Part shown: in pieces, positions 4,997 through 61,785 of the stretch
Layout of the letters: the number at the start of each line of letters is the position of its first letter
Position numbering within the stretch: position 1 is the first letter of the stretch
NCBI GenBank assembly: GCA_964016885.1
Contig: OZ024741.1
Coordinates: forward strand, 111,166,001 to 111,230,000
From: Eledone cirrhosa
Taxonomy: Eukaryota
Direction: 5' to 3'
DNA length: 64,000 nucleotides
The notes under the pieces: generated by a model
Database searches by the model: none
What the model was told of the DNA's origin: nothing
Seen by the model: the letters and a program-made list of their open reading frames with translations, nothing else
Program-made: the position numbers and the translations under genes

Positions 4997-5177
4997 ATAA
5001 AAAAATAAACCAAAGGAGCCTTCAATACATCAAAAGTCTTTATTAGCCAACAATGTTTTGTCCTATTAAGTGCTTCTTGTAGCTTTACTTGCCCTGATGA
5101 GTCCTTAATAGGACGAAACATTGTTGGCTAATAAAGACTTTTGATGTATTGAAGGCTTCTTTGGTTTATTTTTTTAT
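4997..5177. repeat. inverted repeat, about 74-bp arms (4997-5070 / 5104-5177)
   Basis: aaaccaaaggagccttcaatacatcaaaagtctttattagccaacaatg is the reverse complement of cattgttggctaataaagacttttgatgtattgaaggcttctttggttt (one mismatch). Confidence 0.9.
5091..5128 (+). ncRNA. minimal type-I hammerhead ribozyme motif
   Basis: GCC-CTGATGA-GTCCT taat AGGAC-GAAA-C att G-TT-GGC: intact core, 5-bp stem II, stem I GCC/GGC, GUU triplet, followed by AATAAA. Confidence 0.8.
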
Positions 5178-5461: not shown

Positions 5462-6021
5462 TAGGAAGAAGCCTGACCCTACGGCAGAGCTCAAGCCTTT
5501 TCTGAGGCTATATATATATATATATATATAGTCATGTAATAAACAACATAAGGCAATTATTCCATTTACCAGTGGTTTCTTAAAAGCCAAAAAATTTGCC
5601 TTCAATCATCAGAATGAAAAAATCCTGGTCTATCCATATATATACACATACACACACATATACATACACATACACATACATACACATACATTATGGTATG
5701 TGAAGGGTAAGGCAAAAAAATAGGGGGAAAAGGTTAAATATAAGGGGAGATAAGGGAGAAAGAGAATACAAGAGTACAGAACGTGGATTCAGCAGGTAAA
5801 AAAACTGTAGTAGGAGTAAAGAGCAGAGAAGGATATATATATATGTAAAAGGTAAACAGAAATAACAACACATATATGTATATATATAACAAATTTAATA
5901 TAGAAATGGCTTCGACAGGACTAGAACTAGAACTATTAAATTTGTTGTATACATTCTACTAATGTATTGAGTACCTTACTTACTGTGGTTACCCCGATAT
6001 TGTGTAACACGGGACTCACAT

Positions 6022-16557: not shown

Positions 16558-16827
16558 GTAAGGTGTTATTTATACATAGATATTGCAACAGCATCTGATT
16601 CTAATGAGTAAATCAACACCATGATGATGTGGAATAACATTGGCTTCTGAGCATGAAACAGGTTGTCTAACTCAAGTTCTCCCTCTATGACATGAATGTA
16701 GCTACCATTGAGGATCATTCTTAAGAAGTCTTCATACTTGAGAGAGAGCTGATGCTTTCTGAGTGATGTTAAACCCCCAATTAATCTATTCAAGCATAGA
16801 AAATAGACATTAAGCAATGATGATAAT

Positions 16828-22897: not shown

Positions 22898-25736
22898 TAT
22901 TTCCTGAAGATCCACAAGTGTAAAATAATTAACGATGCCTGTAAACAATCCACCTCAGCCTGCGTGAACACACAATACCCCACTGACCTTAAATTAAGAC
23001 CAATTGTAGCGGGCCCACAATGTGAAACACACAGACTGAACAACTTTATAGACATACTACTAAAACCAATTCTCAAACACATACCAAGCCTTGTAAGAGA
23101 CGATCTGGACCTCTTAAACCACCTCCCCAAACATGCCAACAATGACACTATTATTGTGTCTTTCGATGTAATGAATCTCTACACAATGATCCCACACCAA
23201 TACGGACTAGAAGCAATAGGATTCTGGCTAGAGAAATATCCCAATGAGATACCTGGCAGAATAGAAAAAAGCTTAATCACTGAGGGATTAAAATTTATCT
23301 TACAGAACAACTTTTTTGATTTCGATGGCAGTACTTACAAGCAAATATCGGGGACTGCGATGGGTACAAAAGCCGCTCCAACTTATGCCAACTTAGTCAT
23401 GGCATACTTAGAAGTCCAGATATATGAAAAGTCCAAATAAAAATACGGATTGAACTTCCACAAATATTTATCAGAGAATTGGAAACGCTACTTGGATGAT
23501 TGTCTCATTCTTTGGTCCCACACACTCGACCAACTGAATGATTTCAAAAATTTAATTAACGGCATCAATAACCACATCCAATTCACAATGGAATACAGCC
23601 AAGATCAACTCCCATTTCTGGACATCTTAATCTTAAAAAAAGACACAAATATTGAAACTGACATACACTACAAACCAACAGATTCCAAACAATATCTGCT
23701 ATTCACCTCCAACCATCCAAAGCACACGAAGACGAACATTCCTTTTAACCTAGCAAGAAGAATTTGCACAATTGTCTCCAATTATGAAACGCGAAATAAA
23801 AGACTTCAAGAATTAAAGGAAATTCTACTCGAAAGACAGTACCCACCATCACTAATAAATAATAGAATAGAAAGGGCTAAAGCAATAGGCATTGATGAAT
23901 TATGAAAACAGAAACAAATTCAAGGTACGTCCAATATTCTATCATATATCTCAACACACAACCCAAGAAATGCAGAAGCTTACAACACTATTCACAAGAA
24001 CATCCCACTATTGAAACAAGACCCAAGAATGAAAAAAGCCCTTGAAACACACAAAATAATCAAAAGCAAAAGACAACCAAAATCACTGAAAACATTATTC
24101 ACCAATGCCAAATTACCTACCACAGACCCACAACCAACTGTCAAAAAATGTGGTCGCTCTAATTGTGGAACCTGCACTCACCTCATTGAAGGCAACACGT
24201 ATACATTTCAATCAGGACAAAATTTTGCTGTAAAACATCACTTCACTTGCTCATCAAAAAATCTACTTTATGCCATTAAATGTAAAGGATGCAATGAAGA
24301 TTATATAGGACAAACTAAACTCAGAAACAGAATGACAGTTCATTGCCAACAATTACGAGATCCAACCACAAGACAGATACCACTAAGCGCGCATCTAGAC
24401 ATATGTGCAACTAATAAGACACCTAAATTCCAAGTCTTCCCATTTTACCTTTGCGCTGACAATACAACAGAACAAATACGAATAAATAAGGAAAATATGT
24501 TTATTCAAAAATATAGACCACCATTAAATATGGTTTAATATACATTATGTCAACACCATAACATGCTAACCATCCAAACAGACACATACACACACACATA
24601 ACACCTTCTACTTTAGAAAATAAAAACGCGAACTAAATAAATCTTAACATACGTTTGCGCTGACAATACAACAGAACAAATACGAATAAATAAGGAAAAT
24701 ATGTTCATTCAAAAATATTTCTACTAACGGAATCATTTTCCTACACACACACACACACACACACAAAATATATATTCTCTTCATCTTAACATGTTAACCA
24801 TACTCCCACACACACATAACACCCATACACACACACACACACACACATAACACCCCCCACACACACAACTCCCTCCCCCATTTCTACTAATAGAATCACT
24901 TTCCTACAAACATACACACACACAAAATATATATAGTCTCTTCATCTTAACATACTCCCACACACACACACACAACTTCCTCCCCCATTTCTACTAATAG
25001 AATCATCTTCCTATACATACACACACACACACACACAAGCACACAAATAAAGATACATATCTTTATTTTCTTTATTTCAATAGAAAGTCTGAATTCTGAC
25101 ACCCTAGCAAACCAGCCATATTCACTGAACCAGAACAATTCTCCCATCCCATTTCTCTTGACCATTATCTTTTGTTTGTCATAAAATTCCCTAAAAAGCT
25201 ACAAAATAAATTCCCAAATACAGTGCGAAATTTAATGAACTTGTTCACGTGACAGTCATAATTTCATTTATAACCAATCAAATTACATTTTAAAAAAAAG
25301 CCTTCGTGAGCCACTTTTTTTAAAGTAAAAAGAAATTCAAACGAACTGACACGAAAGCTGATCTGCTTATTCACGTGACTGCATCAACCAAACAAACTTC
25401 ACTCATATATGAAAAAACGACCTGAGCCCCCCCCCCCCCCCCCCCCCCCTGTTTGAAGAACTTTGTAACGTGAACTGGTGCAAAATTTATTATACTTATT
25501 GACCAACCAATCAAATTATTTCTCTAAAAACCTGGCGTTTCGAGCCACTTTTTTTCCATATAAAACAAGTAACATTCTAAGACCAATCAGATGTGAGAAA
25601 AACCATAGACCCTCCATCTCAACTTTACTTTTGAAAAGCAGAAGAACTTCGAAACCAGTAAAGGAACCAAATAAATATATATATTTTTTTAAAAATAAGA
25701 CTCCAGTTGCATTTTCGATTTCATCTTTTTTTCTTT
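22898..25736 (+). mobile_element. Penelope-like retroelement 1 (RT + GIY-YIG, Naiad-like), 5'-truncated, with long 3' UTR/pLTR, between (TA)n tracts
   Basis: KIHK-x25-LRPIVAGP, SFDV..LYT, GTAMGT..APTYANL, RYLDD, CGRSNCGTC knuckle, NLLYAIKCKGCNEDYIGQT; in-frame stops at 23438 and 23903; (TA)n at 22874-22897 and 25736-25750. Confidence 0.92.
25628..25663 (+). ncRNA. variant (U3-A8) minimal hammerhead motif at the PLE1 3' end
   Basis: CTT-TTGAAAA-GCAG aagaa CTTC-GAAA-CCAG-TA-AAG, then AATAAA at 25669; stem II has one mismatch. Confidence 0.55.
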
Positions 25737-25803
25737 ATATATATATATATTATAAATACACTAACAGGAGGCTCAGCTGGTGTAAATCCTTGAAAAGTTT
25801 ATT

Positions 25804-25861
25804 ATACTATGATCATTTCAATGACCGGGTTCCGTATGAATCTGGTGATATCATCAGGTAT
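25804..25861 (-). ncRNA. minimal type-I hammerhead motif, stem II degenerate
   Basis: Minus strand reads ATAC-CTGATGA-(31 nt)-GAAA-TGATCA-TA-GTAT, with palindromic ATGATCAT stem III, then AATAAA and (TA)n. Confidence 0.65.
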
Positions 25862-58181: not shown

Positions 58182-58252
<71 letters not shown>

Positions 58253-58362
58253 TAAAAGGAAAAGAAAATGCTGACAAATTGTTCCCAGTGAAAAATAGTT
58301 TAATTAGGAATAAGTAAAAATTAGTAATAAGTATTGGTTAGTATTCAGTTTTAGTTTTAAGT

Positions 58363-58398
58363 TTTTACCGGTTGCGCATTTCTAATGCTTTTCAAAAA
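58363..58398 (-). ncRNA. variant hammerhead-like motif, left arm of PLE2
   Basis: Identical reverse complement of 61533-61568. Confidence 0.45.
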
Positions 58399-59148
58399 TA
58401 ATTTTGAGATAGAGCGCCCGTGATGTTTGCTCTAATATGATCAGTTTTGGAAATTCTACCTGTTTTATGTGAAAAAAGTGGCTCCAGAGGTATTAAAATA
58501 AGTTTCGCGCCAATTCGTGTTGCAAAAATTCTTGTGGTCAAAACAATTCTGATTGGTCGGTAGAGGTCACGTGAATGTTAAAAATTGATTTTGCGCCAAA
58601 TGTAGGTTTATCGAAGAGTGTCCTTTTTCGCCTGATTGAGAAGTCACTGAAAAATAAGTCTTTTAAGACAAATATGTGTGTGTGTGTAGTAAAGAGGTTC
58701 ATTGTTGTGATAATGGTCAATAGGGATGTGTGTGTGAATTGCAGTCATGTTGAAAAGTCAACAGTTCAGGTGCCTATTAAGACAAATATGTGTGTGTGTA
58801 GCAGAGTAATTCGTGGTAGAGGGATCGGTCAGTAGGAATGTGTCTGTATGTGTGTGGGGGATATTTTAACATGTTGAAAGATATTTTTCAGCTCTTGTCT
58901 TATACGGAGAAGTGTGTGTGTGTGTGTGTATGTCTCTTTGTATGTTAGTGTATGTGTGTGTGTATATATATATGTGTGTGTATGTGTGTGTGTGTGTGTG
59001 GACCAGTATTTTTGTGATACTGGTAAAAATGGTGTACATTATTCGATATTTTCACCAAAAACGATTCTCTCAAGAGAACATCAAAAACATTAATAATAAA
59101 AGGGGGGAAATGATATATAGTATTGTCATAATACCAAGGTGTGTGTGA

Positions 59149-60711
59149 GTGTCCAAATTAAGACCTATAATAGCAGGCCCCGCTTGCGAAACCCACCGCC
59201 TTAGCAACTTCATAGATACCCTTCTCAAGCCTTTTCTCAAACACATCAAAAGCTATATAAGGGACGACCTAGATATGCTCAATCACCTTCCTAATATGCC
59301 CCTTTCTGAACAAACCCTACTAGTGACGTTCGATGTAGTCAACCTATACTCCAACATCCCCCACAACCTAGGAATAGAAGCTATCCAATTCTGGCTGGAT
59401 AATTACCACAATGAACTCCCACAACGCATCAAAAAAGAATTCGTGATAGAGGGACTCAAATTTATCTTGGAGAACAATTACTTCGTTTTCAATATCAAAT
59501 CCTACAGGCAGAAATCTGGGACCGCTATGGGAACGAAAACAGCCCCTTATGCCAACCTAGTCATGGGATACCTGGAAACCACCCTCTACACTAAAGTACT
59601 AAACAAATTTGGAAACACTCTCCACTTACACATAGAAAAGAACTGCAAGCGATATCTAGATGACTCCTTCATCCTTTGGCACGAAAACATCGAGAAACTT
59701 AAAGAATTTCACACCCTCATAAATGGGCTCAACACGAATATTAACTTTACGATGGAATACAGCCATCAACAACTCCCCTTCCTCGACATCCTCATTAAGA
59801 TTCATAACAAAAAAATAGAAACAGACAGATACTACAAGCCCACAGACTCCAAGCAATATCTTCCTTTCAACTCTTGCCACCCTAGACACGTTAAAATTAA
59901 TATTCCCTACAACTTAGCCAAGAGAATCTGTACTATAGTCTCCAATAAAAACACCTGTTACTTACGGCTACAAGAACTAAAGGACACACTCATAGGCAGG
60001 GACTACCCTGCATCACTAATTGATAATGGAATTCAACGTGCCCTAAAACTCAGTACCCAGGACCTTAGACACCCTAAAGTAAATCAACCAAAACTAAAAG
60101 CTCTTCCATACATCTCCACACACAACCTCCTTAACAATGAGGCCTTTCACACCATCCTCCAGAACATCCCTGTGTTAAAAAAGGACCATAGAATGAACCA
60201 AATCTTTCGAACACACGATATCATAAAGAGCAAAAGACAATCTAAGTCAATGAAAAACATCCTAACACATGCCAAAGTACTGCCAACCACAACAACGAAA
60301 CCCACAGTAAAAACATGCGATAGACCCAACTGTGGCATATGCATCAACCTAATAGAGGGTTCGGAATTCTATTTCAAAGAAGGACAACGTTTTATAGTAA
60401 AACACAATTTCACATGCGCATCAGAAAATCTAATATATGTATTAACTTGCTCAGGTTGTCGAGAATACATAGGCCAGACCAAAAACAGCCTCCGCCAACG
60501 CATGACTGTCCATAGATCCCAAATTAAAATACGGGAATACAGGAAAATACCACTGAGTGAACACATTGATACTTGTGCCGCCCAAAATCACCCCAACTTT
60601 AGAATCTTTCTCCTCTACAAATTTAAAGATAATGCCACCCACACCCAGCGCATCAGCAAGGAATCTCACTTTATTAACAAATACGGACCCCGTCTAAACA
60701 CTTCTCCCTAA
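59149..60711 (+). CDS. PLE reverse transcriptase + GIY-YIG endonuclease, 520 aa open but N-terminally truncated
   Basis: LRPIIAGP, TFDVVNLY, GTAMGT, RYLDD, LPFLD, CDRPNCGIC, NLIYVLTCSGCREYIGQT. RT motif 1 is absent and the start codon comes from the inverted arm. Confidence 0.88.
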   Translation: MSKLRPIIAGPACETHRLSNFIDTLLKPFLKHIKSYIRDDLDMLNHLPNMPLSEQTLLVTFDVVNLYSNIPHNLGIEAIQFWLDNYHNELPQRIKKEFVIEGLKFILENNYFVFNIKSYRQKSGTAMGTKTAPYANLVMGYLETTLYTKVLNKFGNTLHLHIEKNCKRYLDDSFILWHENIEKLKEFHTLINGLNTNINFTMEYSHQQLPFLDILIKIHNKKIETDRYYKPTDSKQYLPFNSCHPRHVKINIPYNLAKRICTIVSNKNTCYLRLQELKDTLIGRDYPASLIDNGIQRALKLSTQDLRHPKVNQPKLKALPYISTHNLLNNEAFHTILQNIPVLKKDHRMNQIFRTHDIIKSKRQSKSMKNILTHAKVLPTTTTKPTVKTCDRPNCGICINLIEGSEFYFKEGQRFIVKHNFTCASENLIYVLTCSGCREYIGQTKNSLRQRMTVHRSQIKIREYRKIPLSEHIDTCAAQNHPNFRIFLLYKFKDNATHTQRISKESHFINKYGPRLNTSP

Positions 60712-61259
60712 GACGAACCCACAACATACACACGTCAACATACATACCTACATAAGCATACATCTTACATACATCTCTATCCACATATAAACACAATGAC
60801 ATACGTAAACACATGTTCTATGGTGCAACACAAATATACACAAATTTGCATACCTTTTGATATCTATAGATATAAACGTGCCGACACACACATACATATA
60901 CGCACACATGCATTGCACACTGATGGGCACATACATATTTGTACACAAGTATTCCAATACGGCAGGGCCTAATGGATTCCTCTTGCAGTACGTAAAATCT
61001 GGACACTCACACACTCACACACACCTTAGTCTTATGACAATACTATATATCATTTCACACCTTTTATTATTAAGGTTTTTGATGTTCTATTGAGAGAATC
61101 GTTTTTACTGAAAATATCGAATAATGTACACCATATTTACCTACACACACACACTTGTCTTAATAGGCACCTGAACTGTTGACCTGTCAACATGACTGCA
61201 ATTCACATGCACATCCCTACTGACCATTATCACAACAATGAACCTCTTTACTACTACTA

Positions 61260-61296
<37 letters not shown>

Positions 61297-61532
61297 TTGT
61301 CTTAAAAGACTTATTTTTCAGTGACTTCTCAATCAGCCGAGACAAACCTACATTTGGCGCAAAATCAATTTTTAACATTCACATGACCTCTACCGACCAA
61401 TCAAAATTGTTTTGACCACAAGAATTTTTGCAACACGAATTGGCGCGAAACTTATTTTAATACATCTGGAGTCACTTTTTCCAAAACTAATCAGATTAGA
61501 GCAAACATCACGGGCGCTCTATCTCAAAATTA

Positions 61533-61568
61533 TTTTTGAAAAGCATTAGAAATGCGCAACCGGTAAAA
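61533..61568 (+). ncRNA. variant (U3-A8) hammerhead-like motif at the PLE2 3' end
   Basis: TTT-TTGAAAA-GCATT aga AATGC-GCAA-CCGG-TA-AAA: perfect stem II and palindromic ACCGGT stem III, but GCAA replaces GAAA. Confidence 0.45.
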
Positions 61569-61681
61569 ACTTAAAACCAAAACTGAATACTAACCAATAC
61601 TTATTACTAATTTTTATTTATTCCTAATTAAACTATTTTTCACTGGGAACAATTTGTCAGCATTTTCTTTTCCTTTTACCA

Positions 61682-61785
<104 letters not shown>

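Follow-up and report, generated by a model that had tools for sequence, protein, structure and literature searches.

The PLE1 motif at positions 25628-25663 of the window, i.e., the whole 64,000-nt stretch of DNA analysed here, almost certainly descends from a hammerhead ribozyme, to judge from sequence comparisons across families. We consider it reasonably probable that the motif, part of a young Neptune-like PLE, represents a minimal type I hammerhead in which positions 3 and 8 form a U-A core pair (U3-A8), for which the family form would be a weak cleaver functioning only as a dimer and the copy in the window would likely be inactive. An initial sequence-only reading had implied that U3-A8 was novel; however, U3-A8 PLE hammerheads, including those with UUGAAAA, were already described in PMC4209133. 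The U3-A8 PLE hammerhead is thus a published form, to which mainly copy number is added here.

The host element and its copy in the window

Copies of two PLE families, PLE1 and PLE2, contribute the following features.

22901..25739, + strand: 5'-truncated PLE1 copy between (TA)n tracts, 87% identical to a full-length unit
22907..24538, + strand: broken RT and C-terminal GIY-YIG frame of PLE1, covering family-protein residues 231-775
25628-25663, + strand: hammerhead motif of the PLE1 copy, near the PLE 3' end
25628..25630, + strand: stem I 5' strand, CTT, from sequence and alignment; the young PLE1 subfamily has CCTT, which adds one pair for a 4-bp stem
25631..25637, + strand: core TTGAAAA, i.e., U3 U4 G5 A6 A7 A8 A9, with U3-A8 replacing C3-G8
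25638..25650, + strand: stem-loop II, GCAGAAGAACTTC; GCAG-AAGAA-CTGC in the family, with a private G>T at 25649 that breaks the stem
25651..25654, + strand: GAAA, i.e., G12 A13 A14 A15.1, found in 33/33 PLE1 copies
25655..25658, + strand: insert of the palindromic stem III, here CCAG; CCGG in the family, with a CpG-type transition at 25657
25659..25660, + strand: TA, i.e., U16.1 and A17, with the predicted cut after 25660 (GUA); numbering per PMC3088659
25661..25663, + strand: stem I 3' strand, AAG, from sequence, alignment and covariation
58243..61688, + strand: PLE2 insertion, comprising an inverted 3'-end copy followed by the RT-EN frame (59149-60711) and 3' UTR
58363..58398, - strand: second PLE2 motif, within the 5'-truncated copy lying inverted at the start of the PLE2 insertion
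61533..61568, + strand: PLE2 motif, with U3-A8 core, 5-bp stem II, GCAA (A13C; 61556-59), CCGG and UA

The string CTT-TTGAAAA-...-GAAA-CCAG-TA-AAG is thus present in the window sequence where the sequence-only reading had placed it. Taken alone, it is indistinguishable from chance: a loose form of the pattern gave 30 matches across the 64-kb window against 19.5 expected, 8 of 100 shuffles being equally high, and the fold of the motif relative to shuffles gave z = -1.46. No hammerhead was reported by Rfam at the motif among the 150 of 165 window matches listed, nor in two further loci carrying intact motifs. Two private changes set this copy apart from its family. The G>T at 25649 takes stem II from -3.0 kcal/mol in the family form to no fold, such that the stem proposed between the core and GAAA holds for the family but is broken here. 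The G>A at 25657 shifts the A-CCGG-U self-duplex from -8.3 kcal/mol in the family form to +1.4 kcal/mol, and the resulting CCAG is not palindromic. The suggestion that CCAG is a decayed CCGG was borne out, with CCGG present in 30/33 family copies as well as in the closest C3-G8 relatives. The window copy is thus a decayed and likely inactive member of the family.

The PLE1 copy ends ~75 nt beyond the predicted cut, and its RT-GIY-YIG frame is interrupted by stops at 23438-40 and 23903-05. In family proteins, the GIY-YIG domain lies downstream of the RT (residues 682-772 of 775 in PLE1, and 691-780 of 784 in PLE2) and is preceded by a CX4CX2C linker (CGRSNCGTC and CDRPNCGIC) of the CX2-5CxxC type; EADKG is present in both families. 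Naiads, as which the element had initially been described, are defined by an N-terminal endonuclease and a change of DKG to DKA (PMC8557442), and a C-terminal endonuclease with retained DKG contradicts that definition; the Naiad assignment is therefore rejected. This correction has consequences, as PLEs with a C-terminal endonuclease are expected to carry a hammerhead, whereas finding one in a Naiad would have been news. With Naiads as described by Craig et al. 2021 (PMC8557442), PLE1 and PLE2 have in common only inverted repeats and a preference for inserting at (TA)n; the N-terminal endonuclease, DKA and absence of a canonical hammerhead do not fit either family. With Neptune PLEs (PMC8557442, PMC3846280), they share the order of RT and C-terminal GIY-YIG, the Cys-rich CX4CX2C linker, DKG, (TA)n targets, and tandem as well as inverted terminal copies. 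By sequence, PLE1 and PLE2 fit a Neptune/Nematis-type EN+ PLE, and (TA)n targeting fits Neptune, with Nematis a possible alternative given trees that contain no named references. The closest protein matches are 62-77% identical. In each of the two families, intact ORF2 copies (7 and 5, respectively) are ~0.3% apart, and PLE1 and PLE2 are accordingly both young.

Full-length units also contain an ORF1, measuring 409 codons between stops in PLE1 and 455 in PLE2, 44% identical over ~280 aa and with no Pfam match; the ORF1/RT-EN region is spanned by L160:3853-7319 (PLE1) and L141:4799-8451 (PLE2). At CAT TTT TTA G (U UUU UUA), ORF1 of both families overlaps with the RT-EN frame in the -1 register, a sequence that makes a programmed frameshift likely; a strong hairpin downstream of the PLE2 site was looked for and not found. 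The PLE1 3' UTR holds a duplicate of 69 nt from the 3' end of ORF2 (24446-24514 and 24650-24718). Head-to-head pairing at a distance of ~20-110 nt is seen for many PLE1 motifs (e.g., L063/L064 and L075/L076), i.e., as very short inverted insertions.

Other RNA-like features were seen in the window and beyond. A C3-G8 hammerhead-like motif on the - strand (25823-25857) belongs to another repeat family, positioned tail-to-tail ~85 nt past the PLE1 end; it reads GAAC, with GAAA at locus L294, and the copies of this repeat family that were checked had no close PLE RT next to them. A weak Rfam HH9 match on the + strand (5078-5148; 28.5 bits vs a gathering score of 52) consists of CTGATGA-stem-GAAA inside a long inverted repeat (~5010-5170), and a possible decayed hammerhead, CTGATGA...GAAACCACTGGTA, lies on the - strand at 5567-5612. 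Rfam also matched U3 snoRNA on the + strand at 16563-16767 (39.8 vs a gathering score of 34 bits), possibly a pseudogene. Further families (L285-L291 and L295) display TTGATAA...GAAACCGGTW with differing stems II, and no close PLE RT-EN was found within their 3.9-kb stretches.

Conservation and covariation of the U3-A8 core

At the family level, the abundance of the motif across the genome is far beyond chance. The PLE1 majority form, CTT-TTGAAAA-GCAG(AAGAA)CTGC-GAAA-CCGG-TA-AAG, derives from 33 aligned segments from the 30 best loci, a set that leans to close copies because 40 of 3,341 candidates were scored; it shows U3 in 31/33, A8 in 33/33, GAAA in 33/33, CTGC in 31/33 and CCGG in 30/33. 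Stem I spans 3-4 bp and stem II 4 bp, and the core agrees with the hammerhead consensus at 11/11 positions, the 3-8 swap excepted. In the 3.0-Gb genome, the 25 central nucleotides of the PLE1 form have 12,914 exact matches, the PLE2 form has 11,084 and a joint pattern 26,416, with 0 for the control in each case. The corresponding CTGANGA pattern, too narrow to capture every canonical hammerhead, has 28 matches and its control 154. In a motif-blind set of 12 loci picked by protein, TTGAAAA and GAAA were present in all 9 anchored matches, and CCGG in 5 of the 9. The variant is indeed one that CUGANGA-based searches miss, as had been proposed, and Rfam misses it too.

Beyond these families, 120 related PLE loci (508 kb) were scanned with a structural descriptor that placed no constraint on positions 3, 8 or 13. 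All 33 matches were on the sense strand, with 27 C3-G8, 6 U3-A8 (at 5 loci) and 0 mismatched pairs; ten shuffles yielded 0 Watson-Crick 3-8 matches and 1.3 other matches per replicate. A single weak GCAA sequence, repeated in L256-L263, accounts for seven of the 33; it was considered as a second case of GCAA and rejected for its weak G-U stem II and its location 1.7-2.4 kb upstream of the RT match; it is regarded as a chance match. Close relatives missed by the descriptor display CTGANGA...GAAACCGGTT by eye, one with a U3-G8 wobble, and the closest relatives carry a canonical CUGANGA...GAAA-CCGG-UH just downstream of the ORF. CCGG is therefore ancestral, and U3-A8 recurs in separate parts of the tree, both trees being quick ones in which some placements are unsure and from one of which the short row L267 was dropped. 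Some of the PLE sequences (L245-L284) are in contigs labelled as bacterial MAGs and are most likely host DNA.

Among 14 family and subfamily representatives, covariation at positions 3 and 8 is perfect (7 C-G and 7 U-A), and both partners vary in 8 of 10 pairs (4/4 in stem I and 3/3 in stem II). U4, G5, A6, A9, G12, A14, A15, CCGG and U16 are invariant in 14/14, as is the hexamer A-CCGG-U. Pairing holds in 86% of cells, vs 62% when shuffled and 30-40% with slid partners, figures that are not probabilities because the sequences share ancestry and were picked for showing the motif. The premise that C3-G8 can covary to U3-A8 is upheld by this 7/7 split and by PMC3088659, in which U3-A8 is described as naturally occurring, with prior in vitro activity noted. 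Alignment, genome counts and covariation agree in supporting the expectation of a U3-A8 core conserved at the family level; at that level, the family consensus retains its stem pairings and the motif is better conserved than its flanks. The tests between subfamilies are weaker than this family-level result: motif-vs-flank comparisons for PLE1 gave P = 0.05 with the young subfamily and P = 0.32 with L296, and a third PLE1 pair gave P = 0.003 with a poorly aligned flank.

PLE2 had been thought to display the same layout as PLE1, with 3' UTRs that otherwise share only short motifs. Instead, PLE2 has GCAA, not GAAA, and so departs from the hammerhead core at position 13, and the two UTRs share a block of 123 columns (72% identity, E 2.6e-11) that extends as far as the motif. 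Because this ~120-nt block is homologous with that of PLE1, PLE2 is not independent evidence. GCAA was found in 33/35 DNA-picked PLE2 rows (GAAA in 0/35), and in 34/35 rows from 27/30 loci of a protein-picked set from which 2 spurious anchors were dropped. Between two PLE2 subfamilies, the 36-nt motif shows 0 substitutions while the flanks differ at 17/165 positions (10%; P ~0.02, one comparison); the invariant block reaches upstream of the motif, and the constraint may therefore have another cause. A third family, PLE3 (L292), has a protein 58% identical to those of PLE1 and PLE2 each, all three being pairwise 56-58% identical. It retains U3-A8, GAAA and CCGG, with C at position 17 and with a stem II and UTR unrelated to those of PLE1 and PLE2. 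As the three families form a single clade (SH-aLRT 100, quick tree), U3-A8 was inherited from one ancestor; A13C is specific to the sister family PLE2. A literature search found no paper on A13C hammerheads, with Lunse et al. 2017 as one that may cover A13C, and among the papers listed for octopus Penelope hammerheads, titles and opening lines of abstracts pointed to none that deals with this motif.

Starting from the Cercyon PLE, Cervera and De la Pena 2014 (PMC4209133) reported that S. mansoni has ~1,300 motifs with U3-A8. With S. mansoni Cercyon family 4, PLE1 shares (i) the type I layout, (ii) the PLE terminal repeat, (iii) U3-A8 and the UUGAAAA heptamer, (iv) G10.1-C11.1, (v) a palindromic helix III, and (vi) a predicted dimer. 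However, PLE1 is without the extra base after A9, has a 4-nt CCGG insert in place of 2 nt, carries A17 rather than U17, and resides in a Neptune-like rather than Cercyon host. The available part of the supplement to that study contains a PLE-linked UUGAAAA motif and gives GAAA in all 56 representatives (one as AGAAA), in contrast to the GCAA of PLE2. PLE hammerheads of Marsupenaeus japonicus, Adineta vaga and Oikopleura in the same supplement share the 4-nt palindromic insert, but with C3-G8; that of M. japonicus resembles PLE1 further in A17 and in having no extra base after A9.

Proposed dimer cleavage and competing explanations

Building on the observed tandem geometry and copy ends, a model for folding, dimer formation, cleavage and role may be proposed. 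The PLE1 motif lies 1,051 nt after the ORF2 stop, on the sense strand and in a terminal repeat, and is repeated in tandems with motifs 4,689 nt apart (L160); PLE2 tandems have a spacing of 4,726 nt. A tandem would thus place two motifs ~4.7 kb apart on one transcript, where their A-CCGG-U hexamers would pair to form a 6-bp stem III and hence a double hammerhead, an arrangement described for PLEs (PMC4209133, PMC6765202). Cleavage of the dimer after GUA would release a unit-length RNA beginning 170 nt before the ORF1 ATG. Of 59 PLE1 3' ends, 22 are located ~65-80 nt past the cut site and 32 at ~135-150 nt, with 5 unclassified. Since copies end past the cut site, cleavage does not set the 3' end, and in the integrating RNA the 3' motif must be either uncut or joined again after cutting. 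Templates produced by read-through, or circular or oligomeric ones, would be in keeping with this.

The monomer cannot close stem III because the loop is only 2 nt; as such a loop is disallowed, the forced monomer energy is meaningless, and the monomer fold is no better than shuffles (z -0.74). Stems in the PLE1 family form are short and AU-rich. In the fold predicted with U3 and A17, these two bases pair across the cut site and lengthen stem I, in what would be a counterpart of the C3-G17 trap known from minimal hammerheads (PMC3884650); PLE3 has C17 and would therefore be without this trap. PLE minimal hammerheads are reported to cleave poorly even as dimers (PMC4209133), and mutation at position 13 to cost 10-100 fold (PMC4075628); PLE2 reached ~11,000 copies despite A13C. 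On balance, we would expect the PLE1 family form to be measurably active as a dimer.

A motif that is hammerhead-derived but non-cleaving, kept as a structural cis-element (for RNA dimerisation via A-CCGG-U, or as an RT recognition site), is possible if on the whole unlikely. Such a role would suit a cut site that U3-A17 can mask, a PLE2 motif unchanged between subfamilies despite A13C, and the finding that all copies examined end downstream of the motif; yet it would leave the invariance of the catalytic U4, G5, A6, A9, G12 and A14 in 14/14 representatives and the retained 3-8 pairing to be explained, PLE3 with C17 would have no trap, and the PLE2 invariant block continues upstream of the motif. 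We find it improbable that the motif is instead a functionless relic hitchhiking at the element 3' end, with U3-A8 and A13C as products of decay in an AT-rich genome. With compensatory changes, the core, the palindrome and the stem pairing have been kept at 56-58% protein identity, the core persists in PLE3 even though its UTR does not align, and decay would not hold positions 3 and 8 in Watson-Crick pairing in 33/33 descriptor matches. These points stand against the facts that a 3' end is copied in every insertion, function or none, that the PLE1 comparisons with the young subfamily and L296 gave P = 0.05 and 0.32, and that Naiads spread and amplify without canonical hammerheads (PMC8557442).

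Chance resemblance to a hammerhead in an AT-rich UTR is scarcely credible. Window pattern counts and fold energy within chance, together with the silence of Rfam, are what it would predict, but it is refuted by the descriptor scan, the canonical motifs just downstream of the ORF in the closest relatives, and covariation.

Exact motifs that escape CUGANGA descriptors and Rfam number at least 26,000 in this genome. A further idea, tentative and in our estimation unlikely, is that the lineage was tuned down stepwise, through U3-A8 with A17 masking followed by A13C in PLE2, a family whose amplification continues, the motif now serving as a cutter that is slow or switched by protein, or else as a dimerisation or RT-binding element devoid of catalysis. 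PLE1, PLE2 and PLE3 would constitute a natural series for what PLE hammerheads are for (A17/GAAA, A17/GCAA and C17/GAAA, respectively), the first two being young with intact ORF2, and could thus be used to probe the need for cleavage in retrotransposition.
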